A stretch of 64,000 nucleotides of DNA from an uncultured Chloroflexia bacterium (GTDB lineage: Bacteria > Chloroflexota > Limnocylindria > Limnocylindrales > CSP1-4), in contig CAVZML010000005.1 in NCBI GenBank assembly GCA_963776395.1, forward strand, positions 612,254 through 676,253, written 5' to 3'. Both the position numbers and the translations under genes were made by a program. The notes below the pieces were generated by a model. It was not told the DNA's origin and ran no database searches. It was given only the letters and a program-made list of their open reading frames with translations. Positions 5,359 through 61,867 of this stretch are shown piece by piece; positions within the stretch are counted from its first letter, which is position 1; every line of letters begins with the position of its first letter.

Positions 5359-6375
5359 TCAGACTTCCTGGTGGGACTGCCGCTTGGCAGCCTCGATGAA
5401 CGCCAGGATGTTCTCCAACGGAACATCGCCGGGCACCGCGTGCGCCGGGGCCAGGACGTAGCCGCCCGCGGCGCCGAGCTCCAGCAGGTGCTCAGTCGCA
5501 ACCCGGACCTCGTCTTCCGAGCCGAACGGCAGCGTTCGCTGCGTGGAAAGCCCACCGAGGAAGGCAAGCCGTCCACGGTACTGCGGCAGGAGGACGTCGA
5601 TGTCCATCACCTCGGGCTGAAACGGGTTGGTGCAGTTGAGCCCGAGTTCGATCAGGTCGTCGAACAGCTCGTCCACGTCGCCGCACGAGTGGTTCATCAC
5701 CAGCTTGCCAGCCGATCGGACGGCTCCGTACATCCGGGCGAGCGGTGGCCGGATGAACTCGTCCCAGATCGGCCGGCCCATCAGGAGGCCATGCTGTTGA
5801 CCCCAGTCGTCGCCGAAGTAGACGCAGTCGATGTCGTAACGGAGGGCTTCCGCCACCTGGGCGATGTTGAAATCGGCGAGCTCTGCGAGCAGGTCACGCA
5901 CGAATCCGGGGTGGTCGTAGAAGTCCATCATCAGGTTCTCGAGGCCACGCATCGACCAGGCCCGCTCGAACAGCGAGAAGCTCGCGGAGAAGACCCGGAA
6001 CCGATCGCCCACGCTTGCCATCTGCGAGTCCCAGCCGATGTAGAACCGCGGGTCGAGCGGATCGGGAAGGGTCAGGTCGCGGAGCGTGGGTTCTGGGAGC
6101 ACCAGGCCGACAGGGAACCCGATGTCCGCGTCCATCGTTCGATCCCAGGTGACCCCGAAGATGTCGCGCACTTGCCCGCCACCGAGGTCCGTGAAGGACC
6201 CGGTCGAACGACGGAGCATCAGCATGTGGTTGCCCACCGCGGCCTCGAGGTCGCACGGTCCGAGATGGTCGAGCAGCTTCGCCCGGGCGCCCGCGGTGAA
6301 GGCGAATTGCCACGGGACATAGGGCGGCCGTCCGCCCTCGAACACAGTGCGAACGACCTCGCGCCGGTTCATCAT
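5359..6375 (-). CDS. uroporphyrinogen-decarboxylase (URO-D) family methyltransferase-like protein (MtaA/CmuA-like), paralog 1
   Basis: URO-D fold-length ORF with no HemE N-terminal signature; immediately downstream of the corrinoid protein gene on the same strand. Confidence 0.7.
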   Translation of the reverse strand: MMNRREVVRTVFEGGRPPYVPWQFAFTAGARAKLLDHLGPCDLEAAVGNHMLMLRRSTGSFTDLGGGQVRDIFGVTWDRTMDADIGFPVGLVLPEPTLRDLTLPDPLDPRFYIGWDSQMASVGDRFRVFSASFSLFERAWSMRGLENLMMDFYDHPGFVRDLLAELADFNIAQVAEALRYDIDCVYFGDDWGQQHGLLMGRPIWDEFIRPPLARMYGAVRSAGKLVMNHSCGDVDELFDDLIELGLNCTNPFQPEVMDIDVLLPQYRGRLAFLGGLSTQRTLPFGSEDEVRVATEHLLELGAAGGYVLAPAHAVPGDVPLENILAFIEAAKRQSHQEV

Positions 6376-6412
6376 GCGGTCGCTCGCCAGCACGCCCGGC
6401 GACGTCCGGTGC

Positions 6413-7042
6413 TCACTCCGCGAGCAGCCGCTTGACGACATCCACCGCCGTCGCGGCGTCGGATGCGTAGCCGTGGGCACCGATCGAGGTTGCGTACTCG
6501 GCGGTCACCGGGGCGCCGCCGACGACGACCTTCACGTCCTCCAACCCCGCCTCACTCATGGCGGCCACCACGTCGGCCATGCCGACCATCGTCGTCGTGA
6601 GCAGCGCGCTCACGCCCACGACCGACGCGCCCTCGTCGCGTGCCACCTGTGCGAACCGTTCCGCCGGGACGTTCGTCCCCAGGTCGACGACGCGCAGATT
6701 GGCGCCCTTCCACAGCATCGCGACGAGGTTCTTGCCGATGTCGTGCAGGTCGCCCTTCACGGTACCGATCACCGCCGTGTGCTCCGGTGTCGCGCCCGCC
6801 GCAACGAGCAGCGGCTCGAGCAGGGCTGTCGCCTCCTTCATCGCCCGCGCGCTGATGAGCATCTCGGGCACGAAGATCTCGTTCTGCTGAAACCTCTTGC
6901 CGACCGTCGCCATCGCCGCACTCATCGCGTCGAGGATGTCGCCGGGTCCGACGCCGTCATCGATCGCCGCCTGCGCCGCCGCGACGGAGGCTACCCGGTT
7001 GCCTGCTTCGACCGCGTCGGTCAGCGTGGTGAGGTCCGCCAT
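6413..7042 (-). CDS. cobalamin (B12)-binding corrinoid protein (MtaC/MtbC-like)
   Basis: DxHxxG B12 motif (GDLHDIGKN); N-terminal helical cap plus Rossmann B12-binding domain; 209 aa. Confidence 0.8.
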   Translation of the reverse strand: MADLTTLTDAVEAGNRVASVAAAQAAIDDGVGPGDILDAMSAAMATVGKRFQQNEIFVPEMLISARAMKEATALLEPLLVAAGATPEHTAVIGTVKGDLHDIGKNLVAMLWKGANLRVVDLGTNVPAERFAQVARDEGASVVGVSALLTTTMVGMADVVAAMSEAGLEDVKVVVGGAPVTAEYATSIGAHGYASDAATAVDVVKRLLAE

Positions 7043-7084
7043 CGGTGCACTCCTGTCGTGGCGCCGCAGCCGCGGCGCTGCTGG

Positions 7085-8239
7085 TCAATCTCGAACGAGA
7101 CCGAGCTGGGCCCTGATGGCAAGGTTCGACGCCTGCCCAACCTGGACGGGATCGCGTGCCAGGGCCACCGTTCGTCCCCGGACCGTCGCCGTGGTCGCCG
7201 ACGGGAAGATCGTGATGATCGTGCCCTTGCGGCCCAGGCCGGCAATGAGCTCCGAGAAGTAGCCTTCGATGTCGACGGGGGCGAAGTCGTCGACCGTGAA
7301 CACGACCCGATCCGCGAATACCTGCTGCGCCCGGTAGACCTGTGCGAAGTCCCCCATGCACCAGTTGTTGACACCGTGCAGGCCGTCCGTGGCGAGGTAG
7401 TTCTCGAGCTGGTGGGTCGCGCTCCCGCAGTAGTGGAGGGTGCCCCCGCCGAATGCCCGGAAGACGCGGGAGTTGTAGGGGACCACGAACTCGCGGTACA
7501 GCGCGGGGGAGACGATCGTGCTGTCATCGTCGCTGATCCAGACGCCGCCATAGCCGCTGGGCAGCTTGACGAAGTGCGGAAACGCGCCCGAATCAGTGGG
7601 CTGTCCCGCGTGCTCCTTCTGCACGCGGACCCAGTCGATGAGCACGGTGGTGCAGAAGTCCATCAGCTCGTGCACGACGGTCGGGTAGTCGTACATCCAG
7701 AGCATGATCGCCTCGACGCCGACGAGGTTGAGCGCGAGGTTGAAGGGGCCCTGATTGTCCGTGAACGACACTGGCAGGTCGCTGTTGGCGTGCATGTAGT
7801 CGATGCACCGGAGCACCCGGGGCATCAGGCCGTCGCGGTAAGGGTCCGGCGGAATGAGCCGGCTCACCTGCGCCGGGTCGGTGAGGATGGGCCCCTCGAC
7901 CGCCGGCTCCTCCTTGGGCTGGAACAGCACCGAGCAGCCGAGCGCGGACGGCACGACGCCGGTCCCGTACCAGGGCAACAGGAACGGGATGTACTCGTCG
8001 TCGTACAGGGCGAGATGATCCTCGATCTTCCCGACCTGGCGCTCGAGCTGCGACTCGAACGCGCCTTCGAGGAAGTAGTCGTCGGGCATGGTGTCCGGGT
8101 GCTCGCCGGTCAGGGAGTAGTTCGCGTCCTGGATCACGATCGGTGGGCGATCGGTGGCCGCATGCCGATACGCGTCCTCGATGCGCGCGCTCGCCCGCTC
8201 GAATCGGAGCCTGTTCGCCTCTGTCATCAGGGTACGCAT
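7085..8239 (-). CDS. URO-D family methyltransferase-like protein, paralog 2
   Basis: 384-aa ORF with the URO-D family pattern; adjacent upstream of the corrinoid protein. Confidence 0.65.
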   Translation of the reverse strand: MRTLMTEANRLRFERASARIEDAYRHAATDRPPIVIQDANYSLTGEHPDTMPDDYFLEGAFESQLERQVGKIEDHLALYDDEYIPFLLPWYGTGVVPSALGCSVLFQPKEEPAVEGPILTDPAQVSRLIPPDPYRDGLMPRVLRCIDYMHANSDLPVSFTDNQGPFNLALNLVGVEAIMLWMYDYPTVVHELMDFCTTVLIDWVRVQKEHAGQPTDSGAFPHFVKLPSGYGGVWISDDDSTIVSPALYREFVVPYNSRVFRAFGGGTLHYCGSATHQLENYLATDGLHGVNNWCMGDFAQVYRAQQVFADRVVFTVDDFAPVDIEGYFSELIAGLGRKGTIITIFPSATTATVRGRTVALARDPVQVGQASNLAIRAQLGLVRD

Positions 8240-8282
8240 CGGTCACCTCGGGAGCTCGGCACGGGGTTCGTGGCCATGGGAG

Positions 8283-9659
8283 TCAGAAGCTCCCCGGCGT
8301 CATGCCGTTGAGGGTCTGCGGGGTCTCGAACAGGATTGCGCGGGCAATGCCGAGAGCCTCGTCGACCGTGTACTGGCCCTGTGCGACCTTGCCGGCCAGG
8401 ACCTCGGCGAGCTGGCGCCGGACGATCACCGCCTTCGCATACGACCACTCGACGCAATAGGCGTCGCTGAAGAACCCGACCTGGCGGTTGAGCGCGACCA
8501 TGTCCAGCCGGTCCCGTATCACCTTGCGCACGATGCCCGGGAACAGGTTGTGCCACCAGAAGCCGGCGAGCGACAGGTTCGGCAGCTCGCGCACGAGCGT
8601 GCAGAGCGCCTGGTTCGCGTGCTCCGAGGCGAGGAACGCCTGGAACGCGATGCCGGGGTGGCGGGCCGCGAGATCGGCGAGGTCGAAGATCGTCTCCTGG
8701 CGGAGCTTGCTGCCGGTCTCGAACGGCAGCGGCTCAGCCCCGATCGAGAACTGGAACAGGATCCGATGGTTGCCGCTCTCGAGCGTCCGGAGGAAGGCCT
8801 CGAGGACGAAGCTCGCGTAGACGTCGCGATCCGCGAGGCTCGGGTGGTCGCGGTGGGCGAGCGCTGCCGCCATGTCGGCCTCGGTGACCGGCCTCAGCGT
8901 CAGGTCGGTCGAGATGTGCTGCGCGGTGCTCAAGACCCGGTCGTATGGGATCGCCGCGACGTAGTGCTCCATGGCCTCGTACACATCCTCGACGGTCCTG
9001 ATGGGCCGTTCCACCGGCGGTCGCCGGCCGCCGAGGGTCACCGGCAGAGGCGCCACCGGGTAGTCCTGCGTTCTCGTCCGTTCCAGCTCATACAGGACGA
9101 TGTCGTTCATGCCCGTCTGGGCACGCGCGAAGAACGCCCATTCGAGCGCGTACTGGAGGACGTCATCGGCTGAGCCGTCCCGGCCGCGCCAGAGCTCCGT
9201 GCACGACCTCCGGATGCCGGTCCTGCGCAGGATCTCACGAGCCCAGGCTGCGTCTCCGCTTCGCTCGCGGATCGCGCCGTCGACATGCCACCAGCCGGCC
9301 TCGTCCGTTGGCGGCTCGATGCCGTACAGGTCGCGAAGGATGAGCCGGACCCCCCAATACCCGCTCGTGTTCCGGATCGCGGGTACGAACGGCAGGGCCT
9401 CGGCGATCCGGGCGTTCGCCTCCTCGCGGGTTGGATCCTCGGACAACCGCGCCCGCGAGGGGCATCCGGCGCTGCCCAGGTCGGAGACCACCATGTGGTA
9501 CAGAAGCACGTCGTCCAGGCCCCGGGCCACCAGGTGGGCGGCATCGACATGCGTGTGCGCGTCAAGCAGGGGGATCTCGGCCAGGCCGTCCGCCAGTGTC
9601 CGGGTGAGGCGCGCCGTATCCACGAGTTCGTCCTCCAGGCTCGAGCTGTGCCCGATCAT
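8283..9659 (-). CDS. glucuronate (uronate) isomerase-like amidohydrolase-superfamily protein (UxaC-like, distant)
   Basis: Start at MIGHSSS (ATGA overlap with the upstream kinase); N-terminal LLDAHTHV resembles the UxaC PIFDYHCHL region; C-terminal FWWHN...SYAKAV resembles UxaC GWWFND...SYTRHE; the long N-terminal extension in the ORF track is spurious. Confidence 0.55.
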   Translation of the reverse strand: MIGHSSSLEDELVDTARLTRTLADGLAEIPLLDAHTHVDAAHLVARGLDDVLLYHMVVSDLGSAGCPSRARLSEDPTREEANARIAEALPFVPAIRNTSGYWGVRLILRDLYGIEPPTDEAGWWHVDGAIRERSGDAAWAREILRRTGIRRSCTELWRGRDGSADDVLQYALEWAFFARAQTGMNDIVLYELERTRTQDYPVAPLPVTLGGRRPPVERPIRTVEDVYEAMEHYVAAIPYDRVLSTAQHISTDLTLRPVTEADMAAALAHRDHPSLADRDVYASFVLEAFLRTLESGNHRILFQFSIGAEPLPFETGSKLRQETIFDLADLAARHPGIAFQAFLASEHANQALCTLVRELPNLSLAGFWWHNLFPGIVRKVIRDRLDMVALNRQVGFFSDAYCVEWSYAKAVIVRRQLAEVLAGKVAQGQYTVDEALGIARAILFETPQTLNGMTPGSF

Positions 9660-10597
9660 CGGTCGGTGGCCACGCGGAGCGTCGCATCGCGGAGGTGCCG
9701 TTCGACCGTGGCCCGGTCGGGGATGCCGCGGCGTCCACCTGGCGTCGTCGCCTTGATCGAGGCCGCGATGGTGGCCACCTCGATCGCATCGGTCACGTCG
9801 CCGCCGCGCGCGATCGTCGCTGCGTAGGCGCCGTGGAAGACGTCGCCACAGCCGTTGGTGTCGACCGCCACCACGCTCGGCGCCGGATGGTGGATGACGC
9901 TGTCGGGCGCCGCACCGACGATGTACCAGGCGCCCTCGGCACCGGCCGTCACGACGCAGGATGCGTGACCCGGTCGCCACAGCGCCCGGACGATGTCCGC
10001 GGGATGGAGCCTTCGGGTGACCGCGGCACCGAAGGAAAGCCCGACGATGAGATGGTCGATCTCGGGGATCAGCTCCACGACGCCGGCAGACACGGCATCC
10101 TCGAGATCCGCGACCACCGGCACGCCGGCCTCGCGGGCGAGCTCCACTGCGTGGCGGGCCACGACCGGCATCGTGCTGTCGACGAGGAGGACCCGACATG
10201 CGCCGACGTCGGAGGAGGTGACGTCGGCGCAATCGGGCTCGACCACGCCGTCGAGGTCGTAGAGGAGCGTCCTCTGGCCCGTCCGGCGGTCCACGATGAT
10301 CAGGGAGTGGATTGGCCTTGCCCCGTCGCGCCGCGTGATGCGCGAGCAATCCACCCCGGCGCGCTCGAGCTCCGCGAGGGTGTACCGCGACAGCTCGTCG
10401 TCGCCCAGCACGCCCAGCCAGGCTGCACTGCCACCGAGCCGTGTGACCGTCACGAGCGCGGTCGCGACGAGCCCGCCGCCCTCACGCCGGCGCTCGAGGA
10501 TCCGTGACTTGGTGTCGGGCTCCGGGTAGTCGTCGACGTACACGAGGTCATCGACGGCGACGGCTCCGAGACCCAGGACGTCCCAGCGCGGAGTCAT
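9656..10597 (-). CDS. PfkB-family carbohydrate kinase (ribokinase/KDG-kinase-like)
   Basis: PfkB signature DTNGCGDVFHGAYA; 313 aa; 4-nt overlaps with both flanking genes. Confidence 0.8.
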   Translation of the reverse strand: MTPRWDVLGLGAVAVDDLVYVDDYPEPDTKSRILERRREGGGLVATALVTVTRLGGSAAWLGVLGDDELSRYTLAELERAGVDCSRITRRDGARPIHSLIIVDRRTGQRTLLYDLDGVVEPDCADVTSSDVGACRVLLVDSTMPVVARHAVELAREAGVPVVADLEDAVSAGVVELIPEIDHLIVGLSFGAAVTRRLHPADIVRALWRPGHASCVVTAGAEGAWYIVGAAPDSVIHHPAPSVVAVDTNGCGDVFHGAYAATIARGGDVTDAIEVATIAASIKATTPGGRRGIPDRATVERHLRDATLRVATDR

Positions 10598-11658
10598 CCC
10601 GTCGTCGACACGAGAGACCCGTCTGGCGCATACGCGCCGTACCGACGGGCGCTCTCGACGAGGGCATGCACGTTGTCATCCGGAGTGTCCAGGGACAGGG
10701 CGCAGCCGGGTCCGAGGATGAACTCGCCGCCCGGCCCGAGGATCTCGATCGCCTCGCGCGCGGCCAGCTCGACGTCCGCCGGTCGGCCGCCCCACAGGGT
10801 CACAGGGTTGACCGGCCCGAGGAAGGTCGCGCGCCCCCGCAACGCTTCCTTCGCCACGCGCATGTCGGTCTTGTAATCCAGCTCGAGCATCTGGGCGCCG
10901 GTCGCCACCATGTCCGCCAGGATCAGCGTCGAGTCGCCACAGATGTGCAGGGAGTAGGGGAAGGTCGGGCTGCCAACCGCCTGGATGACCTCACGGGCAT
11001 AGGGGTGGCAGAACGTCCGATGGAGCCTGGGGCCGATGAGGTCCACGCCCACGCCGCCCATGGACGTCCCGTGGGCACCCGCCTCCCGCAGCGCCTCCGC
11101 GTAGGACTTCTGCACCCGGGTGCAGAAGTCGAGGGTCAGGCGCACGAGCTCGGGCTGCTCGTCGAGCTGCAGGTCCAGGATGAACTGCTCATAACCGCGA
11201 AGGGCCCCGTAGAGGGCCGCCGGCCCCTGGTCGGCGCGGCCCATGATGAACACCTGGTCGCCGACCTCGCGGGCGAGGATCCGGACGGCCTTGATGACCT
11301 CGGACATCGGGAACGTCGTGACCGGGTCCGGAACCTCGAGGTCCAGGACCCCCTCCAGACCGTCGGCGAGGATGTGCGTGATGAGATCGGGCGGCTGGTC
11401 GGGCCTGTACTCCGCCTCGCAGCCACACGCCTGCGCCTCGGCGATCACGCCGTTCTCCACCAGCAGGACGTCGTGCCCGAAGTCGCGCCAGTACCGGAGC
11501 TGGGACTCGGCGATCAGCTCGCCGCTCTGGAGGGCCGCATCGAGCGGCAGGCCGGCATGGCGGACGGCGGGGAGGAAGTTGTGGAGATCCACCGGCACCC
11601 GGTCCGGGATCCTGTGATCGACCGTCGCCAGCACCCGCTCCAGCGATGTCATCGACAT
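10594..11658 (-). CDS. URO-D family methyltransferase-like protein, paralog 3
   Basis: 354-aa URO-D family ORF; first gene of the minus-strand operon. Confidence 0.65.
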   Translation of the reverse strand: MSMTSLERVLATVDHRIPDRVPVDLHNFLPAVRHAGLPLDAALQSGELIAESQLRYWRDFGHDVLLVENGVIAEAQACGCEAEYRPDQPPDLITHILADGLEGVLDLEVPDPVTTFPMSEVIKAVRILAREVGDQVFIMGRADQGPAALYGALRGYEQFILDLQLDEQPELVRLTLDFCTRVQKSYAEALREAGAHGTSMGGVGVDLIGPRLHRTFCHPYAREVIQAVGSPTFPYSLHICGDSTLILADMVATGAQMLELDYKTDMRVAKEALRGRATFLGPVNPVTLWGGRPADVELAAREAIEILGPGGEFILGPGCALSLDTPDDNVHALVESARRYGAYAPDGSLVSTTG

Positions 11659-11958
11659 CGCGGCTCTTCTGCTCGGGCGATCATGTCGGTCCCTCCCGGC
11701 CCGCGAGCGTGGCGGGCAGACGCGCCGCCCGTGCGCCGGACGACGAAGTCGATTGGCGTCGGAACAGCCGGTGCCAGGTCTTCGGACGAGGGGCGTGTCG
11801 TCGCCGCGAGCCTGCAGTCGGCCTGCCGTACGTCGTGCAATCGTATGCGCGATGTCGTATCGTTGTCAACGCCCGCCGATGCGTCCGGGCGGCGGCCGGA
11901 TCGGGCCGCGTGCGGATGGTCGCTGATCCCGCGGGTCAGTCACGAGGAGCCGGTCGCC

Positions 11959-12876
11959 ATGGCAGCTTCGTTCCCGGGAGGCGTGTTTCCCGCCCCGCCG
12001 ACCCCTTTCTCCGCCACGGGCGTTGACCGCGAACGCGCGGCGCGGCACGCCCGGTGGTTCCTCGACCGTGGCGCCCATGGGCTGATCATCGCGGGAAGCG
12101 GCGGCGAGTTCATCGCCTTGACCATGGACGAGCGCAAGGCGCTGGTCGAGGCCGTGCTCGAGAGCGTCAACGGCGACGCGCCGGTCATCGTGTCCATCGG
12201 GACGTACGCGACAGGTGCAACCATCGAGCTCGGACTGCACGCCGTGGCGAGTGGCGCGACTGCCGTTCTGGCCACGGCCCCGTACTACATGCAGCCAACG
12301 CCCGCATCGGTCCGGCGCTACTTCTCCGAGATTCGCGCCGCGGTCGACCTGCCGCTGATGTTCTACAACTCGCCCGGCGGGACGGGGATCGACCCGGCCC
12401 CCGCCGACATCGTCGCCATGGTGGACGAGGGCATCCTCCAGGCGGTGAAGCAGTCGTACGCGGACCACTATCACCTCCGCGAGCTCAAGCACGACCTGGG
12501 CGACAGGGCCGCGGTGTTCGCGGGACACGATGCGTCCGCCTTCGAGTGCATGGTCGACGGCGCCGATGGCTGGGTCTCGACCTTCCCCACGATCTTTCCG
12601 CAGCGTGCGCGGCGGCTGTGGGACGCCATCCAGGCGGGAGCTCCGGTGCCCGTCGTGCGGGCGCAATGGGAGGAGGCGCTGCCGTTCATCCGGTTCGTGT
12701 ACGACGCTTCCCTGAAGGTCAGGGGCGAGCCGCACTGGCTGGAGGCGTTCAAGTCGGCGGCGAATCTCGTGGGAATCGACGCGGGTGCGCCGCGACCGCC
12801 GTTCCACCTGCTCGAGGGAGCCGACCTCGAACGGTTGCGCGGGATCGTGGACAGCCTGCGGGAACCGGGAGACTGA
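11959..12876 (+). CDS. dihydrodipicolinate synthase/N-acetylneuraminate lyase (DapA) family aldolase
   Basis: DapA-family length and motifs (GSGGEF..., Schiff-base Lys region AVKQS); the upstream part of ORF 10504..12876 is antisense to the URO-D gene and spurious. Confidence 0.7.
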   Translation: MAASFPGGVFPAPPTPFSATGVDRERAARHARWFLDRGAHGLIIAGSGGEFIALTMDERKALVEAVLESVNGDAPVIVSIGTYATGATIELGLHAVASGATAVLATAPYYMQPTPASVRRYFSEIRAAVDLPLMFYNSPGGTGIDPAPADIVAMVDEGILQAVKQSYADHYHLRELKHDLGDRAAVFAGHDASAFECMVDGADGWVSTFPTIFPQRARRLWDAIQAGAPVPVVRAQWEEALPFIRFVYDASLKVRGEPHWLEAFKSAANLVGIDAGAPRPPFHLLEGADLERLRGIVDSLREPGD

Positions 12877-12877
12877 C

Positions 12878-14129
12878 GTGCGGATCACCTCGGTCACGAC
12901 CGCGGTCGTGCAGGCGAACTTCGACTACACCTTCGTCCGGATCGCCACCGACGAGGGCCTCACCGGCACCGGCGAGTGCTTCACTGCCCCAGCGCTCCCG
13001 CGACTGGTGCGCGAGCTGGGGGAGCTGCTGATCGGCAAGGACCCGGCCCACCCGGTCCCGCTCTGGCGCCGGCTCATGACCGCCGTGTCCGGCACCGGCT
13101 CGAGCTCGGGCGCCGGCATCGCCTACAACGCGATCTCGGGGATCGAGACGGCGCTCTGGGACCTGAATGGCAAGATCGTGGGCGTCCCCGCCGTGCGCCT
13201 GCTGGGCGGCGCATTCCGGGACCGGGTCGAGGTGTACGCCGATCTCCACGGGGGCACCGAGCTCCACAGCATCTCGTCGCTCATGCAGTACCGTCGGCCG
13301 TTCTGGACCACCGAGGACGGCCTCACCCACGTCGGCGGCTTCTACTGGGAGGAGGCCGAGGCAGAAGGGGTGTCGATCGATGCCACGGTGAGCCGCTGCC
13401 GCGAGGCCGTGGGGGCCGGGTTCCGGAACGTGAAGCTGGACCTCGACGTGTTCTCCACGGCGCGTGAGGGCACCAGCCGCAGCGTCACCAGCGCGGACCT
13501 CCGCCGGATGGCCGAGATGGCGATGGCGGTCCGGGCCGCGATCGGGGACGACGTGGGCCTGGCCTTCGACTGCCACTGGCGGTTCGACGTCATGACCGCC
13601 CTCGCTGTCGCCGACGCGGTCGCGCCCGCCCGCCCGCTGTGGCTCGAGGACCCCGTCCCGCCCGATCCCGAGGCGATGGCCGCGGTCACCGCGCGGAGCC
13701 CGGTGCCCACCGCGACCGGCGAGAACACGTACCTCCTCGAGGGCTTCGAGGCGCTCCTCCGGAATCGATCGGCGCCACATCGTCACGCCGGACGTCCAGA
13801 AGGCCGGTGGCATGGCCGAATGTGTGAGGATCGGCGACCTGGCCGCGCGTCACTTCGTCCCGTTCGCGCCGCACTGCATTGCCAGCCCGCTCGGGTTGAT
13901 CGCGGCCGCGCACGTCTGCGCGGCCCTGCCCAACCATCTCTGCCTCGAGTTCCACGGCTCCGATGTCCCGTTCTGGGACGAGCTCGTGGTGGGCTCCAAC
14001 CCGGTGATCCAGGACGGTGCGGTGGCGATCCCCGACGGGCCCGGTCTCGGCGTGGAGCTCGACATGGCGGTCGTTCGGCGATACTCGGCGCCAGGCGAGC
14101 CGGTATTCGAGGAGCCGCCCGCGCGCTGA
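12878..14129 (+). CDS. enolase-superfamily (mandelate racemase/muconate lactonising enzyme, MR/MLE) sugar-acid dehydratase-like protein, apparent frameshift near 13775
   Basis: GTG start right after the DapA stop; N-terminal MR/MLE capping domain, then ATGENTYLLEGF; the C-terminal barrel continues in a different frame as ORF 13812..14129 (MAECVRIGDLAARHFVPFAPH...). Confidence 0.65.
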
Positions 14130-14158
14130 AAGGGAATCCGTCGAATGGAGCGTCGACG

Positions 14159-14974
14159 ATGACGGGTCGCGCGTGGTTTGCAGGCAGGACGGCGATCGTG
14201 ACCGGCGCGTCGCGTGGCATCGGTCGCGCGATCGCGGAGCGCTTCGCCGACGAGGGGGCGTCGCTCGTCCTGACGGCGACCTCGAGCAGCCGGCTCGACG
14301 ACGTCGTGAACGCATGCCGCGAGCGAGGCGTCGCGGCGGAGGGTGTCGCCGGCGACCTGGCCGACCCTGACCTTCCGGCTCGACTCGTCGAGGTCGCCGT
14401 CCGGGCGTTCGGATCGGTCGACATCGTCGTATGCAATGCGTTCTGGGACGAGACTCGCCCGGTCACCGCGGCGACGCTCGACGGGTGGGACCGGACGCTC
14501 CGGGTCTCGCTGACGGCTCCGATGCTCCTGGCGCAGGCGGCGCTGCCGGGGATGGTGGCCCGCGGCTCGGGATCGATCGTGCTCATCGGCTCGATGCGCG
14601 GGGTGGCGTCCGGACACGGGTATGCGGCCTACGAATCCGCCAAGGCCGGCCTGCTCGGGCTGACCCGCTCGATCGCGGTCGACTACGGGCCCAGCGGGAT
14701 CCGCTGCAACTGCGTATGCCCGGGCCTGATCCTGTCGGAACGGGCCGTCGACTGGTATGCCGCGAAGCCCTGGCGCAGGGACGCGATGGACGCCGTGGTC
14801 CCGTTGGGCCGTCCGGGAATGCCCTCGGAGGTCGCCAGCGTTGTCGCGTTCGTCGCCTCGGACGAGGCGTCGTTTGTCAACGGGGCGACCCTCTGGGTCG
14901 ACGGCGGCAACGGGGCGTCGCTGCCCGAGAACGCGGCGCTGGAGCTCGCCCGACGGGCGGCGGAGTCACAGTGA
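14159..14974 (+). CDS. SDR-family oxidoreductase
   Basis: TGASRGIG cofactor motif and YAAYESAKA catalytic YxxxK. Confidence 0.85.
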   Translation: MTGRAWFAGRTAIVTGASRGIGRAIAERFADEGASLVLTATSSSRLDDVVNACRERGVAAEGVAGDLADPDLPARLVEVAVRAFGSVDIVVCNAFWDETRPVTAATLDGWDRTLRVSLTAPMLLAQAALPGMVARGSGSIVLIGSMRGVASGHGYAAYESAKAGLLGLTRSIAVDYGPSGIRCNCVCPGLILSERAVDWYAAKPWRRDAMDAVVPLGRPGMPSEVASVVAFVASDEASFVNGATLWVDGGNGASLPENAALELARRAAESQ

Positions 14975-14988
14975 TCGACACCGGTCGC

Positions 14989-16191
14989 CTAGGTCGTGCG
15001 TCGGACGTGGGTGGTCGGGCGATCCAGCAGGTCGGGCGCCAGGCGCACGCCGTGGCCGGGACCGGGATCCGGCGTCAGGGATCCATCCAGCAGCAGCGGC
15101 AGCCCGACCGCGACGTCGCGGTACCAGCCGCGGTAATAGGCGCGCACGATCTCCTGCAGGAACGCGTTCTCGACGCTCAGCGACACGTGGACGCCGACGG
15201 CGAGGTTGACCGGGCCCGTGCAGTCGTGAAGCCCGAACGGAATCGAGTGGACGGCGGCCAGCTCGGCGATCCGCCGCGCCTCGGTCACGCCGCCGCACCA
15301 GGTCGCGTCGGACAGCGCGATCCCTACGGCTCCCGAGGCGAGCAGCTCGCGCTGGCGAAACCGGCTGCCGATATTCTCGCCGGCCGCGATCGGAATCCTG
15401 GTCGACCTCGCCAGCTCCGCGAGCGCGTCGATGTTGTCATTCCGCACGGGATCTTCGATCCACAGGGGGTCGAACCGTTCGACGGCCGCGACGATGCGCT
15501 TCGCCGCGGGCAGCAGCCAGCGCGAGCGCATCTCGATCGCGATCTCCATCCGGTTGCCCACGGCCGCCCTGATCCGCTCGAGGATCGCCACGCCACCGTC
15601 GATCACCGCGCGGCTCGCGAGCTGGCCGCCGTCGGTGTCGAGGGTCGCGTCGAAGGGCCAGATCTTCATCGCGTCGATGTGCTCCGCGAGCAGGCTCTCG
15701 GCCAATGCCTCGGGCGCGTTGAGGAACGCCCACAGGTCCTCGTCCCGACCGCCCGGGGTCTCGATCCCGAACAGGCTGTCCCCGGGCCGCAGGCGGGTGG
15801 ACTGGTAGCGCGGCCCGGCGCACGTGTTGTAGGCGCGGACCGAGTCGCGGACCTTGCCGCCGAGGAGCTGCCAGAGCGGGAGCCCCGTCCTCTGCCCGAA
15901 CACGTCCCAGAGCGCGATGTCGATCGCCGACGCGCCGCGGGCCTCTGCGCCGACGCCCTTGCGCGACCACAGGCGGTACAGCGCGCCCCAGTGGGCAGTG
16001 ATCTGGAGGGCATCCCGCCCTACGAGGTACGGCGCGGCCGTCTCGTGGATGTATGCCGCGACCGCGTCGGCGCCAAAGAACGTCTCGCCCAGGCCGACCA
16101 CCCCGTCGTCGGTCTCCGCGAGCACCCACAGCACGTTCGGCTGGCTGTCGATCTGCACCGTTGCGATCGACCGGATCGTCGTGCCTTTCAT
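14989..16191 (-). CDS. enolase-superfamily (MR/MLE) dehydratase-like protein, second paralog
   Basis: Start at MKGTTIRSIATVQ; MR/MLE pattern with metal-ligand regions (IEDP, AAGEN). Confidence 0.7.
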   Translation of the reverse strand: MKGTTIRSIATVQIDSQPNVLWVLAETDDGVVGLGETFFGADAVAAYIHETAAPYLVGRDALQITAHWGALYRLWSRKGVGAEARGASAIDIALWDVFGQRTGLPLWQLLGGKVRDSVRAYNTCAGPRYQSTRLRPGDSLFGIETPGGRDEDLWAFLNAPEALAESLLAEHIDAMKIWPFDATLDTDGGQLASRAVIDGGVAILERIRAAVGNRMEIAIEMRSRWLLPAAKRIVAAVERFDPLWIEDPVRNDNIDALAELARSTRIPIAAGENIGSRFRQRELLASGAVGIALSDATWCGGVTEARRIAELAAVHSIPFGLHDCTGPVNLAVGVHVSLSVENAFLQEIVRAYYRGWYRDVAVGLPLLLDGSLTPDPGPGHGVRLAPDLLDRPTTHVRRTT

Positions 16192-16256
16192 GGGGCCCTC
16201 CAGGCTGCTCGTGGCGACGCCGATCATAGGGGGACGGCGCCGGTGGTCGGAGCTCC

Positions 16257-17099
16257 ATGAGCGACGCGGGGCGAGCAGCGGGCCGCACGCTGACGATCCG
16301 CTGGCTCGGCCAGGCGGGCTTCGTGCTCTCGGCGGGTGGACCGCGGGTGATGGTGGACCCGTGGCTGTCGGCTCACCCGCTCCGGGCACGCCGTGCTCCG
16401 GAGCTTGCGAGCGTGCCCGATGGCGTCCGGTGGCTGCTCGCGACGCATGAGCACCCCGACCATCTCGACCTCGGGGCGCTGCCGCGGCTCGTCGACCGGT
16501 TCCCCGACCTGCGGATCGTCGTCCCCGAGCCGCTCCGCGAACGGGTCGAGGCGGCCGCGCCGCGGGCGCTGGTTCACGGGGTCCAGCCCGGCGACAGGCT
16601 CGACCTCGGGGCCGCTGAGGTTTCGGTGGTCCACGCCTGGCACGGGGTGGTCGTCGCGGACGGGTACACCGACGGGCACGGCCTGCGCGTCGACGGGCAG
16701 ACGCCGTTCGTGGGCTACGTGCTGGACTTCGGAGAGGTGACCGTCTACCACGCGGGCGACACGGTTCTCGGGCCGGGGCTCGTCGACGAGCTGCGATCGC
16801 TCGGGGTCGGGGTGGCGCTTCTGCCGGTCAACGGGCGGGACCAGGCTCGCGAGGACGCCGGCATCCTCGGCAACCTCGACCCCGCCGAGGCGGTCACGCT
16901 GGCCACGGCGATCGGCGCCCGGGTCCTCGTCCCGATGCATCACGACATGGTCCGGGGGAACCGGGGCCGGGCCTCGCGCGTGGTCGACGCGGCAGCGCGG
17001 GCCGGCGCCCCTCTGGCCGTCCTTCTCCCTGCCCCGGCGATCGATGTCGAGATCGGCCCGGCCATGATGCGGCCGCCGAAGCGGAGCGAGGATCGATGA
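16257..17099 (+). CDS. MBL-fold metallo-hydrolase (possible sugar lactonase)
   Basis: HxHxDH motif THEHPDH; 280 aa; ATGA overlap with the next gene. Confidence 0.75.
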   Translation: MSDAGRAAGRTLTIRWLGQAGFVLSAGGPRVMVDPWLSAHPLRARRAPELASVPDGVRWLLATHEHPDHLDLGALPRLVDRFPDLRIVVPEPLRERVEAAAPRALVHGVQPGDRLDLGAAEVSVVHAWHGVVVADGYTDGHGLRVDGQTPFVGYVLDFGEVTVYHAGDTVLGPGLVDELRSLGVGVALLPVNGRDQAREDAGILGNLDPAEAVTLATAIGARVLVPMHHDMVRGNRGRASRVVDAAARAGAPLAVLLPAPAIDVEIGPAMMRPPKRSEDR

Positions 17100-18055
17100 A
17101 CCCCGTGGTCGGCGAATCGCCTCGCACCTGGACCTGGGACTCGGCCCTCACTGGCGTCGTACCGCCGGTTATCTCGCCGCTGTCCGTCTCCGGACGCCCG
17201 GACCGTGGTGCCCTGGGTCGGGTGATCGGGCATGTCCTCGACCACGGGTGCAGCGGCCTGTTCGTGCTCGGCGGGTGCGGCGAAGGAGCGTGGCTGACGA
17301 CGGCCCAGCGCGGCCAGGTGATCCGAAGGGCGGTCGAGGTGTCGGCCGGTCGCGCGCCCGTACTCGTCGGCGTGATGCTGCCGGCGACGGGTCCGGCGGC
17401 GGAGGCCGCCCGCCAGGCCGAGGCGGAGGGAGCCGACGCCGTGGTGGCAGGCTCGCCGTACTATGGCGCTTCTTCCGCCCTGGCCCAGGAGCGCCACATC
17501 GAGGAGATCCTGCGCGCCGTCTCCCTGCCGGTTCTGCTGTACAACATCCCGCAGGCGACCCATAACCCGGTCCTCCCGGCGACTGCCCGCCGGCTCGCCC
17601 GGGAGCCGCGCGTCCTGGGCATCAAGGACTCGGCCGGGGACCTGGGTGGTCTCATCGGGTTCCTGGGCATCAAGGAGATGCGCCCGTCGTTCCGGGTGCT
17701 GCAAGGCAGCGAGCACGGCGCGTCGTCGAGCCTCCTCCTCGGCGCCGACGGGCTGGTGCCGGGCATGGCGAACTTTGCGCCGGGGTTGTTCGTGGCGCTC
17801 CGCGCCGCAGCGGCGGCCGGCGACGCCGAGCGCTGTCGGAGCCTCCAGGCGGAGATCAGCGATCTCTGGACCCTCCACCTCCAGGGTCACTGGCTGACCG
17901 CGCTGAAGGCGGCATGCGCCCTCGTCGGGCTGGGCAACGGCATCCCCAGCCCGCCGCTGCGCCCCGTCACCCAGGAGGAGCGGCGCGCGATCGCCGCGAT
18001 CCTCGAGCGTCACTCGTTGCTCACCCGAGCGTCGCGGCCGCTCACCCGGGCGTAG
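17096..18055 (+). CDS. DapA-family aldolase, second paralog
   Basis: DapA family pattern including GIKDSAGD (Schiff-base Lys). Confidence 0.7.
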   Translation: MNPVVGESPRTWTWDSALTGVVPPVISPLSVSGRPDRGALGRVIGHVLDHGCSGLFVLGGCGEGAWLTTAQRGQVIRRAVEVSAGRAPVLVGVMLPATGPAAEAARQAEAEGADAVVAGSPYYGASSALAQERHIEEILRAVSLPVLLYNIPQATHNPVLPATARRLAREPRVLGIKDSAGDLGGLIGFLGIKEMRPSFRVLQGSEHGASSSLLLGADGLVPGMANFAPGLFVALRAAAAAGDAERCRSLQAEISDLWTLHLQGHWLTALKAACALVGLGNGIPSPPLRPVTQEERRAIAAILERHSLLTRASRPLTRA

Positions 18056-18120
18056 CGGCCGGGGCTTGCCACTGCCGGCGCCTGGTCGAGGTTACCCATC
18101 GACCGGGCCGGCCGGCCGTC

Positions 18121-18918
18121 CTACTCCGCGAGCATCACGGCTTCGGCGGGGGGCACAAGGTCGTGGATCACGGCCTTGAATGCCTCGACCGCGCCGGTGA
18201 CGTTCTCGAAGCCCCAAACGTTGCGGCCGATCGTGGCGCCGCGCGCGCCCGCCTCGATGATGTTGCGAGCCACCTCCAGTGCAGCGAGGAGCGTGCTCGT
18301 CTTGGGACCGCCGGCGGCTACCAGCGGCGTGGGGCAGTCGGCGACGATCTGGCGATAGGCCTCGAGGTCCCCGCAGTACGGCACCTTGACGATGTCGGGA
18401 CCACACTCGACGGCGCATCGGACGGCCCATGCGATGTCATCGGGGTCGAAGATGATGTGCGGCGAGCCGTCGAAGCTGCGCGGGTAGACGTGGCAGACGA
18501 CCGGCAGCTCGTACCGCGCCGCGTCGCGCACGACATCGGACACCAGGCGCAGGTAGCCTGCCTCCGATGGCCCTCGCAGGAATGCCACGACCGCGATCGC
18601 GTCCGCCCCCAGGCGGACGGCTTCCTCGGCCGTCGCCACGATCTCGAATGCCGTGTCGTCCGGGCGGACGATGCAGCTCTGAACGATCAGCGGGATCGTC
18701 CCCGCGTACGGCTCCCAGATGTGGGCCGCCGGGCCCTTGTGCATGGTGATGGCGTCGGGGCGGCCGGCGGCGAGCGCCGCGATGGTTGGCGCGAGGTGCC
18801 TGAGGCCCGCCGGCATCCCGTCCCCGTAGCCGATGTAGTGGTCGACGGCAACCGAACACAGGCGTCCGGACGGGTGCGAGAACAGGCGGTTCAGCCGCGT
18901 GCTCTTGCCTGTGGTCAC
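18121..18918 (-). CDS. class I aldolase of the DeoC/FbaB (DhnA/LsrF) family
   Basis: 265-aa TIM-barrel aldolase pattern with DIVKVPY (catalytic Lys). Confidence 0.65.
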   Translation of the reverse strand: MTTGKSTRLNRLFSHPSGRLCSVAVDHYIGYGDGMPAGLRHLAPTIAALAAGRPDAITMHKGPAAHIWEPYAGTIPLIVQSCIVRPDDTAFEIVATAEEAVRLGADAIAVVAFLRGPSEAGYLRLVSDVVRDAARYELPVVCHVYPRSFDGSPHIIFDPDDIAWAVRCAVECGPDIVKVPYCGDLEAYRQIVADCPTPLVAAGGPKTSTLLAALEVARNIIEAGARGATIGRNVWGFENVTGAVEAFKAVIHDLVPPAEAVMLAE

Positions 18919-19008: not shown

Positions 19009-20085
19009 TCAGGCCGCGCCAATGGCGGTGTCTGTGGGCTCGGAAGCGCGACGGATGGCCGAGGGTCGATCGGGTCCCGGGGGCGGTGCACATGACTCGC
19101 GCACCACCAGCTCTGGCAGGAACACCTGGTTTGCCGGTTCGTCCGCACCCGGAGGCCGCCCAACGAGCGCGATGGCCGCCGCGACTGCAGCGCTCGCCAT
19201 CTCGACCGCCGGGATGCGCACCGTCGTCAGGGGCGGGATCATGTAGCCGGAGAGGGAGAGGTCATCGAAGCCCGTGAGCGACAGGTCGCCGGGAATGTCG
19301 AGTCCGATGCGGTAGGCGGCGTTCAACGCTCCAATCGCGATCAGGTCGGTCGCGGCCATCACAGCCGTCGGCGGCACGCGCAGGGCCGCGAGCGAACGCA
19401 GCCCCGCCCCTCCGCTCGCGGGGTTGTTCTCGGTGGCGACGTCGTAGCCGCGGTGAAACTCGAGGTGGTTGGCGAGCGTCAGCTCGAGGAACGCGGTATG
19501 GCGGGCCGGAAAGTCGCCGTACAGTCGTGGTCCGAGGTAGGCGATCCGCGTGTGACCGAGCCCGACCAGGTATTCCATGACTGCCGCGATGCCGTGGTGA
19601 TCATCGACATCGACGGCGGCGACGCCCACATCGCGCCGCGATCCCCGCGAGAGGCTCACCGTCGGCACCCGGGACTCGCCGAGCTCGCGCAGCACCCGCG
19701 GCTGGTCGCGCATGTCGCCGAGGAGGATGATCGCGTCGCAGTGGCGGGTCTCGAGGACGGCCTTCAGGGCGACGGCCTCGCGGGCTCTGCCGCGTGCATG
19801 CCCCAGGACCACGTTGTAGCCGCGATCGCGCGCAGCCGTGCTCACGGCCTCCACGAGGCCAGGAAAGAATGGGTCGGTAATGTCGCCGACGATGACGCCG
19901 AGGAGCATCGTCCTGGCGCCGCGGAGGGCCCGTGCCACAGGATTGGGCTCGAAGCCCAGGCCGCGGGCGACCTCCACGACGCGATCCCGCGTGTCGGCGC
20001 CGATCCGGACGGTAGGCGGGGCCCCACTGAGGACTCGCGACACGGTGCTCTGCGATACGCCCGCGACCCGGGCGATGTCCTTCAT
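19009..20085 (-). CDS. LacI-family transcriptional regulator
   Basis: N-terminal HTH MKDIARVAGVSQSTVSRVLSG plus periplasmic-binding-like core; the long upstream extension in the ORF track is spurious. Confidence 0.85.
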   Translation of the reverse strand: MKDIARVAGVSQSTVSRVLSGAPPTVRIGADTRDRVVEVARGLGFEPNPVARALRGARTMLLGVIVGDITDPFFPGLVEAVSTAARDRGYNVVLGHARGRAREAVALKAVLETRHCDAIILLGDMRDQPRVLRELGESRVPTVSLSRGSRRDVGVAAVDVDDHHGIAAVMEYLVGLGHTRIAYLGPRLYGDFPARHTAFLELTLANHLEFHRGYDVATENNPASGGAGLRSLAALRVPPTAVMAATDLIAIGALNAAYRIGLDIPGDLSLTGFDDLSLSGYMIPPLTTVRIPAVEMASAAVAAAIALVGRPPGADEPANQVFLPELVVRESCAPPPGPDRPSAIRRASEPTDTAIGAA

Positions 20086-20256
20086 CGTGACCTCGCGAGC
20101 CGTGTCGGGGCGGCGGAGGATGCCCGACACGCGAACAGGTTCGTCGGTCACGGCCGGTCCTCGGGGAGGGCCGCAGGGAGTGCCCGATGCGCGCCCGTCC
20201 CGACCCGAGCCTGACTGTACGGCCCAGGGTCGTTCTGCGACGAGGAGGCGGGAGGC

Positions 20257-20345
20257 TGGATGTCGCGACCGGGGCACGTCGCGGACCCGCGAATGTCGCG
20301 CAGAAGACGTGTTGACAGCCTCATTGGCGTGAGCATACGATTGCA
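20257..20345 (+). promoter_or_regulatory. candidate LacI operator(s) (GTCGCGAC palindrome and AATGTCGCGCAG half-site) and a sigma70-like promoter (TTGACA-17-ATACGAT) upstream of the ABC transporter
   Basis: Direct reading of the intergenic region; relatively AT-rich patch in a GC-rich genome. Confidence 0.4.
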
Positions 20346-20479
20346 CGGCTTCGCGGTCAAGACCGCCAAGACGGTCGGTTGACGACCGAGGGCCGCCTGA
20401 CGGTCCATGTGTGACCGGCGGCGATGCCCCGCACGTCCGAGGCAGGTGACTACCCCGGACCGAGAGGAGGGCCATTCGG

Positions 20480-27397: not shown

Positions 27398-27461
27398 CGC
27401 GCGGTCGGGCCGGCATCGCCGAAGCCAACGGTTGACATCGCCCACGAGCGAGGCAGAAGGC

Positions 27462-30043: not shown

Positions 30044-30045
30044 CC

Positions 30046-30686: not shown

Positions 30687-30738
30687 TCCGCCAAGTCGTC
30701 GACGACGACCGGTGAACGTCGCAGAAGGAGCAGGCCAC

Positions 30739-31897: not shown

Positions 31898-32020
31898 GGT
31901 CTGCCGGTCAGCGCTCCTCGACCTCCGCCCCCAGCCCGTTCCCGATGAGCCGGCCAGTGAAGGCGATGCGCACCGGCAGGGCGCGCCCGCGGGACCCGGG
32001 AACCCGGGCCCGTACCCGGA

Positions 32021-46300: not shown

Positions 46301-46378
46301 GGCGCGCCCGACAGGATTCGAACCTGCGACCTTCGGCTCCGGAGGCCGACGCTCTATCCGCTGAGCTACAGGCGCGCG
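46301..46378 (-). tRNA. tRNA-Arg (anticodon CCG)
   Basis: Reverse complement reads GCGCGCCTGTAGCTCAGCGGATAGAGCGTCGGCCTCCGGAGCCGAAGGTCGCAGGTTCGAATCCTGTCGGGCGCGCCA; cloverleaf elements TAGCTCAG and GGTTCGAATCC are present. Confidence 0.85.
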
Positions 46379-61836: not shown

Positions 61837-61867
61837 GGGTCCGCCATCCTCCTTCAATTCTTCCCAC

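Follow-up and report, generated by a model that had tools for sequence, protein, structure and literature searches.

Gene content and layout of the operon

The window analysed here, a 64 kb stretch of contig CAVZML010000005.1 from an uncultured Chloroflexia bacterium, carries a six-gene minus-strand operon (5359–11658) in which genes for three uroporphyrinogen decarboxylase (URO-D)-family proteins and a corrinoid protein are interspersed with genes for a sugar kinase and for a protein with the fold of the uronate isomerase UxaC. Because the GC content of the window (~70%) yields swarms of spurious open reading frames (ORFs), raw ORF lists were unreliable, and genes were called by third-position GC frame analysis in place of plain ORF lists, together with profile searches. 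In order of transcription, the promoter region and the genes are:

11869–11840, minus strand: promoter-like site TTGACA-18-TACGAT, upstream of URO-D3
11834–11848, minus strand: candidate LacI-type operator, GCATACGATTGCACG, overlapping the promoter-like site of the operon
10594–11658, minus strand: URO-D3, full-length and MtaA/CmuA-like (PF01208, 1.7e-51)
9656–10597, minus strand: PfkB-family sugar kinase (PF00294, 9e-36), with an ATGA overlap at each end
8283–9659, minus strand: UxaC-fold protein of the amidohydrolase superfamily, 458 aa, with no Pfam hit
7085–8239, minus strand: URO-D2, a divergent URO-D-family protein (PF01208, 2e-24)
6413–7042, minus strand: corrinoid protein, with a B12-binding_2 cap and a B12-binding Rossmann domain
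5359–6375, minus strand: URO-D1, a divergent URO-D-family protein (PF01208, 4.7e-22)

Frame analysis and profile searches bore out the gene content and order that a first-pass annotation, made from the letters alone, had given for this operon. Both of the ATGA overlaps that it reported (10594–10597 and 9656–9659) are present in the sequence, and the remaining junctions are short, as it had said, with gaps of 43, 42 and 37 nt; the start of URO-D1 is the ATG at 6375, replacing a GTG at 6480. The two overlaps suggest that the operon genes are co-translated. Between 5000 and 12100, the site at 11869–11840 is the only sigma-70-like one and no terminator-like sites were found, and the operon is predicted to form one transcription unit driven from the promoter-like site at 11834–11869.

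A promoter and operator shared with a sugar importer

Both the promoter-like site and the operator candidate recur within the window, in front of an ATP-binding cassette (ABC) importer that lies next to a divergent regulator gene:

19009–20088, minus strand: LacI-family regulator (LacI helix-turn-helix domain and Peripla_BP_3)
20312–20341, plus strand: second promoter copy, TTGACA-18-TACGAT, upstream of the importer
20333–20347, plus strand: second operator copy, the same 15-mer
20495–21526, plus strand: solute-binding protein (SBP) of a monosaccharide-type ABC importer (Peripla_BP_4)
21574–22389, plus strand: ABC ATPase, identified by eye from the translation
22386–23420, plus strand: ABC permease, likewise identified by eye from the translation
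23450–24538, plus strand: last gene of the importer operon, with a weak NCBIfam match to PepQ (Xaa-Pro dipeptidase; 4e-10, 39 bits vs 630)

The exact 15-mer GCATACGATTGCACG has only two copies in the 64 kb, one before the operon and one before the importer, whose promoter is overlapped by a divergent promoter-like site for lacI (20360–20332). The solved SBPs nearest to the importer's own are monosaccharide binders, for example of arabinose and ribose. In relatives (L-numbers denote loci from other genomes and metagenomes), the operator core CATACGATTGCAC lies upstream of URO-D3 orthologues at L083, L095 and L097, and at L083 it also precedes two SBP genes. The link between methyltransferase and sugar genes, central to the first-pass annotation, is thus strengthened by the promoter and operator shared with the importer, by the retention of the operator in relatives and by the recurrence of such genes in unrelated sugar contexts (see below). 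We infer that a corrinoid-dependent demethylation module is probably joined here to a short phosphorylative sugar pathway under one LacI-type regulon. A biosynthetic role, in which the enzymes would methylate sugars, was judged unlikely, as the operator is common to the operon, the importer and catabolic genes.

No riboswitch, cobalamin riboswitches included, was detected at gathering thresholds anywhere in the window, nor in the 5' leader when E-values of up to 1 were allowed. Rfam models matched the window at two tRNA genes only, 46303–46375 (minus strand) and 61770–61843 (plus strand).

The URO-D paralogues

All three URO-D proteins of the operon score best on the models for MtaA/CmuA and for methylcobalamin:coenzyme M (CoM) methyltransferases, and all stay below the curated cut-offs, which is why we regard them as new subfamilies outside the named ones. 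An identity with HemE of haem biosynthesis was rejected, given scores far under the cut-off of the hemE equivalog TIGR01464 (302.95): 49.7 bits for URO-D3, 21.7 bits for URO-D2 and no hit for URO-D1. The HxCG motif is kept in all four paralogues of the window (a fourth was found at 30739–31770), and the AlphaFold2 (AF2) model of URO-D2 (pLDDT 93.8) has MtaA (4ay8 and 4ay7) as its nearest structures, followed by HemE and MetE. Taken together, the profile scores, the motif and the model agree with the earlier placement of these proteins on the methyltransferase side of the superfamily.

The three differ in how close they stand to MtaA. URO-D3 scores 9e-40 on TIGR01463 compared with 2.6e-13 on hemE, and its nearest sequence in the PDB is the Methanosarcina mazei MtaA 4ay7 (1.1e-21). 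Its HICG (residue 238) and the cysteine of a GPGC further downstream form an H-x-C...C motif that presumably corresponds to the zinc ligands of MtaA. URO-D3 is a candidate methylcorrinoid:acceptor, or methyltransferase II (MT II)-type, enzyme. URO-D2 matches 4ay7 weakly (8e-5), has its HYCG motif at residue 269 and, at 237–239, a DDD that is invariant, and belongs to a family of 531 members. As the paralogue that travels with the corrinoid protein and that diversifies with the type of isomerase, it is the likeliest candidate for the substrate-specific methyltransferase (MT I). URO-D1, also a weak match to 4ay7 (4.5e-3), has HSCG at residue 229 and the histidine of an APAH further downstream, and is a possible second methyltransferase. 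A URO-D protein of L084 shares 71% identity with it, and proteins at 46–47% identity adjoin the UxaC-like genes of L017 and L018. The position of the third ligand is thus occupied by cysteine in URO-D3, by histidine in URO-D1 and by neither in URO-D2.

The additional paralogue lies apart from the operon:

30739–31770, plus strand: URO-D4, with HNCG at residue 273 and a C-terminus (~31770) that is probably frameshifted

URO-D4 sits between DhaK (Dak1 by Pfam)/DhaL-like genes and an AraD-like class II aldolase/epimerase (context 29045–32737), in a stretch of lower GC content (0.637 for 30–32 kb vs ~0.69), and the region may have been acquired horizontally. The setting resembles the URO-D plus Dak1/Dak2 arrangement of an Aeromicrobium locus (L173). 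The DhaL-like gene (30046–30686), identified by eye only, is frameshifted near 30270.

The corrinoid protein and candidate partners in methyl transfer

Both domains of the corrinoid protein score above their cut-offs (PF02607, 2.5e-16; PF02310, 2.1e-24), and its DxHxxG motif reads DLHDIG, at residue 98. The best models were MtgC, MtbC and pyl_corrinoid (1e-41 to 5e-51, all below their own cut-offs) and mutase models scored much lower, which supports the earlier view of a methyltransferase-type protein as opposed to a mutase fragment. Named relatives come from Chloroflexota or Ca. Limnocylindrales. Co-evolution of the corrinoid protein with URO-D2, once considered because the corrinoid proteins of URO-D2 loci are 63–70% identical to it, was dropped, as thousands of corrinoid proteins are equally similar.

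Using proteins of relatives as tblastn queries, we found no RACo/RamA-like, Pterin_bind, MetF/MetVF-like or DUF1638 genes in the window, in agreement with the first-pass annotation, which had likewise seen no RamA-like activase and no pterin methyltransferase there. Such genes do accompany orthologues of the operon proteins elsewhere. At L084 and L085, where the UxaC-like protein is 85% identical to that of the window, the gene order is RACo, Pterin_bind, a MetVF-like reductase and the URO-D1 orthologue, followed by sugar-acid genes (an epimerase, an FAH-family hydrolase, an SDR [short-chain dehydrogenase/reductase], an MBL [metallo-beta-lactamase] protein and an enolase). The first four lie on one strand (11628–17276 at L084, and likewise at L085), and the 562 aa MetVF-like protein of L084 is MTHFR-like with DUF5981, resembling a MetV–MetF fusion. 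No corrinoid protein gene was seen within the 21 kb shown for L084. In the operon itself, the MtaA-like URO-D3 is a possible acceptor methyltransferase. DUF1638, a family with a genetic link to B12 reactivation in Phaeobacter (bioRxiv 10.1101/192971; PMC12478193), is encoded among the URO-D genes of L098 (7138–7881) and is present at L103 and L105 too. A DUF1638 gene also lies near the UxaC-like gene of L062.

The UxaC-fold protein and its family

The first-pass annotation had called the 8283–9659 protein UxaC-like, and of this call the fold stood while membership of the uronate isomerase family did not. Pfam profile searches gave no match to PF02614, and the glucuronate isomerase model (PRK02925) reached 33.2 bits, over the C-terminal 107 residues only, vs a cut-off of 387. 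Among solved structures, the closest sequence was that of 4i6v (1.4e-18), a Planctomyces "amidohydrolase 2" that is uncharacterised, ahead of the uronate isomerases Bh0493 and TM0064 (5e-5 to 9e-4); identity to UxaC was 14–18%. In the AF2 model (pLDDT 89.5), by contrast, the only strong full-length matches were 4i6v, at the top, and uronate isomerases (TM 0.64–0.76), with Foldseek values of 1.9e-15 for TM0064, ~1e-14 for Bh0493 and 1e-13 to 1e-11 for the Caulobacter and Salmonella UxaC enzymes. On this predicted structure, assignment to the uronate-isomerase fold is sound.

Of the catalytic set, which we take to comprise HxH, Tyr50, Asp355 and Arg357 (Bh0493 numbering), HMMER alignments showed the HxH (HTH at residue 35) and the Ser-Asp catalytic aspartate (SDAY at 398) to be kept. 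Tyr50 and Arg357, on the other hand, have Met56 and Tyr401 as their counterparts, and neither of these varies among 35 members of the family. We describe the protein as a putative aldose–ketose isomerase and not as a canonical uronate isomerase.

Its family is large (>2,177 matches, 52–88% identity) and spread over Planctomycetota, Verrucomicrobiota, Armatimonadota, Chloroflexota, Hydrogenedentota and further phyla; in GTDB, the loci that come closest for this gene belong to Chloroflexia metagenome-assembled genomes (MAGs), at 72%. We surveyed the neighbourhoods of 82 such loci, with up to 10 kb of flank per side. Homologues of the PfkB kinase occurred in 40 of the 82 and the DhnA aldolase in 19 (18 of them 55–68% identical to the 18121–18918 protein of the window, and one, at L065, only 31%). 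URO-D-like matches were found at about 8, and a corrinoid protein at none. URO-D1-/URO-D3-like genes beside the UxaC-like gene characterise L017 (a Thermoguttaceae MAG), L018 (an unclassified metagenome chromosome) and L072 (Dormibacterota), at 46–47% identity; the other URO-D-like matches were 26–32% identical. These neighbour counts define a conserved core of isomerase-like protein, kinase and class I aldolase, to which the methyltransferase genes are a lineage-specific addition.

All-versus-all ORF clustering of the same neighbourhoods was polluted by antisense ORFs and was used after Pfam checks or reading of the sequences. Within 6 kb of the UxaC-like gene, it gave ribulose-phosphate-epimerase-like genes at 22 loci (an assignment made by sequence reading), RuBisCO-like genes at 18 and Gfo/Idh/MocA dehydrogenase genes at 17 (RuBisCO_large and GFO_IDH_MocA being confirmed by Pfam on examples from L017). 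Other frequent neighbours (L003–L082), both identified by eye, were an alpha/beta hydrolase (16) and a xylose-isomerase-like TIM barrel (12). The neighbourhoods look like an uncharacterised sugar pathway of PVC phyla, Armatimonadota and Chloroflexota, and the UxaC-fold family is probably the isomerase of an uncharacterised isomerase–kinase–aldolase pathway in Planctomycetota, Verrucomicrobiota, Armatimonadota and Chloroflexota.

Kinase, aldolase and flanking sugar-acid genes

Between the operon and the regulator gene lies a block of further catabolic genes, which profile searches and frame analysis recovered, together with the LacI regulator and the importer, as the first-pass annotation had listed them (DHDPS, dihydrodipicolinate synthase family):

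11959–12876, plus strand: DHDPS, from profile search
12878–14129, plus strand: enolase-superfamily dehydratase, frameshifted
14159–14974, plus strand: SDR
14989–16194, minus strand: enolase-superfamily protein
16257–17099, plus strand: MBL protein, lactonase-like
17096–18055, plus strand: DHDPS
18121–18918, minus strand: DhnA/DeoC-type class I aldolase (PF01791, 1.6e-29; nearest PDB sequence MJ0400, 3e-40)

The block at 11959–18055 resembles a non-phosphorylative route from aldose through aldonate to 2-keto-3-deoxy-acid. For the operon's kinase, the best NCBIfam model was ribokinase (5e-27), with 2-keto-3-deoxygluconate (KDG) kinases at 2e-13 or weaker. No UxuA-, UxuB-, UxaA-, UxaB- or KdgA-type product was found among the cluster genes profiled.

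These results bear on what the first-pass annotation had proposed as substrate, namely that 4-O-methylglucuronate or another methylated uronate is demethylated and fed into a glucuronate/KDG-type hexuronate pathway. The uronate-isomerase fold speaks for this proposal, as 4i6v and UxaC enzymes are the only strong structural matches, and so do URO-D2-family genes that stand beside GH88 unsaturated-uronate hydrolases (L088) and beside beta-galactosidases (L141), enzymes that could process arabinogalactan side chains capped with 4-O-methylglucuronate. However, neither the missing PF02614 match and the 33 bits vs 387 nor the Met and Tyr in place of Tyr50 and Arg357 are what a uronate isomerase would lead one to expect; the kinase is ribokinase-like rather than KdgK-like, the aldolase is of the DhnA type rather than a 2-keto-3-deoxy-6-phosphogluconate (KDPG) aldolase, and the Ashwell-type genes are missing from the profiled set. 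In addition, parallel clusters with a fucose-isomerase-like protein and DhaKL point to neutral hexoses. We therefore consider the methylated uronate very unlikely as the substrate and find the label "hexuronate-type" unsupported. The broader idea, that a demethylated methyl sugar enters catabolism, has been strengthened, with 4-O-methylglucuronate as one of many possible substrates.

Frameshifts affect several genes of the window. In the first enolase-superfamily gene, the break lies near 13776–13882, and the orthologue of a relative is intact (416 aa). A RhaD-aldolase/SDR fusion (24646–26456) is frameshifted near 25011, and an L-arabinose-isomerase (AraA)-like gene (27432–28841), identified by eye only, has several frameshifts. 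Such breaks may stem from indels introduced during long-read assembly or may reflect genuine decay of the genes. Directly after the fusion follows an LsrF-type protein (26483–27397; 460.9 bits vs a curated cut-off of 297 for 3-hydroxy-5-phosphonooxypentane-2,4-dione thiolase), and the same pair follows the URO-D cluster of L097.

Conservation and wider genomic contexts

The operon is retained in two relatives, L083 (84% identity) and the P0013 contig (76%), as URO-D, UxaC-like, URO-D, corrinoid protein and URO-D, adjoining the same DHDPS–enolase–SDR–enolase–MBL–DHDPS block. A second arrangement is found in an Aeromicrobium MAG (L173), where LacI, a URO-D2 homologue (URO-D2'), a Fucose_iso_C protein, the corrinoid protein, DeoC, PfkB, Dak1 and Dak2 are encoded beside an SBP/ABC pair; L083 and L096 have the set from LacI to PfkB, also beside an SBP/ABC pair, Dak1 and Dak2 being an addition of L173. 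The presence of a non-homologous isomerase-type protein in the same place argues for an isomerase role of the UxaC-fold protein and for a front-end role of URO-D2 and the corrinoid protein.

A metagenome scan yielded 80 URO-D2 loci, and in most of the loci a URO-D1-like paralogue adjoins the URO-D2-family gene. Among the neighbours are ribose-type sugar ABC transporters and AraC-type and two-component regulators, with clostridial loci combining sugar ABC and AraC genes. At L117, SBP, ATPase, permease, corrinoid protein and three URO-D genes follow one another and adjoin GalT, whereas the URO-D2-family genes of L088 occur with GH88 and DHDPS genes. Beta-galactosidase-family genes (GH2, two copies of GH42, and GH59) are interleaved with three URO-D genes, GntR and a corrinoid protein gene at L141 (524–20890), which is the clearest hint that some family members act on methylated galactosides. 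DUF5107 proteins adjoin the URO-D2-family clusters of two unrelated genomes, those of L117 (1–1695, a high-GC metagenome contig) and L086 (20925–21146, Clostridium sediminicola).

A proposed pathway for methylated sugars

Given these gene identities, the operon layout, the promoter and operator shared with the importer and the recurrence of the association in other genomes, we think it somewhat probable that the operon serves the corrinoid-dependent demethylation of an imported methylated sugar, a reading that rests on genomic context. A methylated monosaccharide (an O-methyl ether, methyl glycoside or methyl ester) would enter via the co-regulated ABC transporter. A URO-D-family enzyme, most likely URO-D2, with URO-D1 as a second specificity or a partner, would move the methyl group to Co(I) of the corrinoid protein; from there, it would be passed on by the MtaA-like URO-D3 or by a pterin-binding methyltransferase encoded elsewhere, which would form methyl-tetrahydrofolate (methyl-THF). 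The cobalt would be kept in its reduced state by an ATP-dependent activase whose gene would likewise lie elsewhere. The UxaC-fold protein may then act on the demethylated aldose as an isomerase, with phosphorylation by the PfkB kinase as the next step; cleavage by the DhnA-type class I aldolase would yield triose phosphate plus an aldehyde. The frequency of PfkB and DhnA genes beside UxaC-fold genes makes such an isomerase–kinase–aldolase route a good fit. The SDR, lactonase, dehydratase and DHDPS block may allow this sugar, or one related to it, to be broken down oxidatively.

Several points weigh against this reading. The system is incomplete as seen, since neither an activase nor a pterin-binding methyltransferase is encoded in the window, and the family of the corrinoid protein is so large, with ~70% identical proteins common in Chloroflexota, that the protein is no specific marker. 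URO-D2 has no obvious third zinc ligand, and a dehydratase of the flanking block is frameshifted. The chemistry is demanding as well: Co(I) cleaves an alkyl methyl ether less readily than an aryl one, the only precedent known to us is the zinc-dependent activation of methanol by MtaB, and cleavage of an alkyl methyl ether would need Lewis-acid activation; a methyl ester or a methyl glycoside would be less demanding as a substrate. No corrinoid gene was found at L017, L018 or L072 within up to 10 kb per side (L072 being a 7.4 kb contig), and the corrinoid protein occurred at 10 of the 80 URO-D2 metagenome loci (12 of all loci fetched), many of them on short contigs. The URO-D2 family may thus not always need a dedicated corrinoid carrier.

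The last two points lead to an alternative in which some or all of the URO-D proteins work independently of corrinoid, acting directly on a sugar intermediate as decarboxylases or in another zinc-dependent step, with the corrinoid protein reserved for one of them or for an unrelated transfer. HemE illustrates that the URO-D fold supports decarboxylation without a cofactor, and at L017, L018 and L072 the URO-D genes lie beside the UxaC-like, kinase and aldolase genes, just as 70 of the 80 URO-D2 loci have no corrinoid gene. Yet the corrinoid protein gene is placed between URO-D2 and URO-D1 and recurs beside URO-D2 homologues in several gene orders; RACo, Pterin_bind and DUF1638 genes co-occur with orthologues; all paralogues score higher on MtaA/CmuA than on hemE; and the many short contigs make the absence of a corrinoid gene weak evidence. 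We regard this alternative as unlikely.

Corrinoid-dependent transfer might also start from a donor other than a sugar, either a small molecule that is no carbohydrate or a thio-methyl compound, with only an indirect link to the sugar genes. Methanol set free from methyl esters would be one example, and the 2-(methylthio)ethanol/acetaldehyde of a 5-methylthioribose-type dihydroxyacetone phosphate (DHAP) shunt another. The isomerase–kinase–aldolase logic does match known DHAP shunts, MtaA-like H-x-C...C enzymes typically act on thiols, and the P0013 contig has a gene of the PNP_UDP_1 nucleosidase family immediately downstream. Moreover, type 1 mlp clusters, which have three MtaA-like genes, have been proposed to use methyl-sulfur or methyl-selenium substrates (PMC10418091). 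Against such a donor speak the operator common to the operon and a monosaccharide-type ABC importer and the fact that genes for glycoside hydrolases, GalT and DhaKL turn up repeatedly beside such clusters; among the profiled cluster genes, none was recognised as a gene of sulfur or selenium metabolism or of methionine salvage. This makes it quite unlikely in our view.

If the demethylation of imported sugars is the correct reading here, it may extend beyond this operon. Tentatively, and with somewhat less conviction than for the operon itself, we suggest that URO-D2/URO-D1-type proteins and the corrinoid protein represent widespread undescribed corrinoid-dependent carbohydrate demethylases, front-end modules that would take methyl groups off various methylated sugars and conserve the methyl group as a C1 unit. 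The demethylated sugars would then enter sugar-specific pathways, either as galactosides or as substrates of the UxaC-fold or fucose-isomerase-like isomerases. The hosts would be soil and sediment Actinomycetota, probably Chloroflexota, Clostridia and others, apparently with aerobes among them.

Polysaccharides of plants, algae and microbes contain methylated sugars, whose methyl group stands in the way of normal catabolism. Were the proposal true, it would add a new chemistry to corrinoid methyltransferases, with alkyl instead of aryl methyl ethers as substrates, allow sugars to be demethylated without O2 and the methyl group to be saved for C1 metabolism, introduce a vitamin B12 requirement into polysaccharide degradation in soils and sediments, and give a role to hundreds of "uroporphyrinogen decarboxylase family" genes in sugar loci whose annotation at present names no function. 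The analysis also defines a large and highly conserved UxaC-fold family, with more than 2,000 members and no Pfam model.

Relation to known systems

In the open-access literature searched, we found no paper that connects corrinoid methyltransferases or URO-D proteins with the demethylation of sugars, nor any about the UxaC-like family; the first-pass annotation, too, knew of no described pathway that couples a corrinoid O-demethylase to hexuronate catabolism. What we propose as new is a corrinoid methyltransferase system that, judging from genomic context, would have a new class of substrate and a new pathway context.

The UxaC-fold protein shares with UxaC itself (PF02614; TM0064, Bh0493) a full-length fold (TM 0.64–0.74), the HxH and the Ser-Asp aspartate; it differs in its 14–18% identity, in the replacement of Tyr50 and Arg357 and in its partners, a ribokinase-like kinase and a class I aldolase instead of Ashwell-pathway enzymes.

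Among methyl-transfer systems, the aryl O-demethylases of acetogens and Desulfitobacterium (Odm/Vdm/Mtv) likewise combine a URO-D-superfamily methyltransferase (OdmB and VdmB belong to the UroD superfamily; PMC10418091) with a small DxHxxG corrinoid protein, and their pterin-binding methyltransferase and RACo-type activase are of the kinds that adjoin the orthologue at L084. The substrates known for them are phenyl methyl ethers, compounds with a good leaving group, whereas the present genes lie in a context of carbohydrate import and catabolism in a bacterium of ~70% GC, comprise three or four URO-D paralogues and include no MT II and activase of that kind in the cluster.

The methanogen systems MtaABC, MtbA and MtsAB are matched by the full-length MtaA-like URO-D3 with its H-x-C...C and by the resemblance of the corrinoid protein to MtbC and MtaC, and activation of an alkyl-O-methyl group is chemically analogous to that of methanol. 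In contrast to those systems, the operon has no MtaB- or MttB-type MT I, and its scores lie far below the family cut-offs; to our knowledge, CoM is not to be expected in this organism.

Type 1 mlp clusters (Kountz and Balskus, PMC10418091) have the layout of the operon in common, with several MtaA-like paralogues, one corrinoid protein and no THF methyltransferase. However, they include a Ram/RACE activase and sulfur, selenium and methionine genes and are restricted to obligate anaerobes, with no sugar or carbohydrate context mentioned for them (PMC10418091), while the window has no Ram gene and a sugar context; for Mlps, an identity of ~30% to MtaA has been reported (PMC10418091), and URO-D1 and URO-D2 stand much further away from MtaA than that.

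The role proposed here, removal of a methyl ether that blocks sugar catabolism, is that of the cytochrome P450 that demethylates 6-O-methyl-D-galactose in marine Bacteroidota, the only enzymatic sugar demethylation that we found described (PMC6292453, PMC10033563). Like the module proposed here, it is encoded in a sugar-utilisation locus, but it belongs to an unrelated family and works oxidatively, consuming O2 and releasing formaldehyde, where the proposed system would keep the methyl group on the corrinoid.

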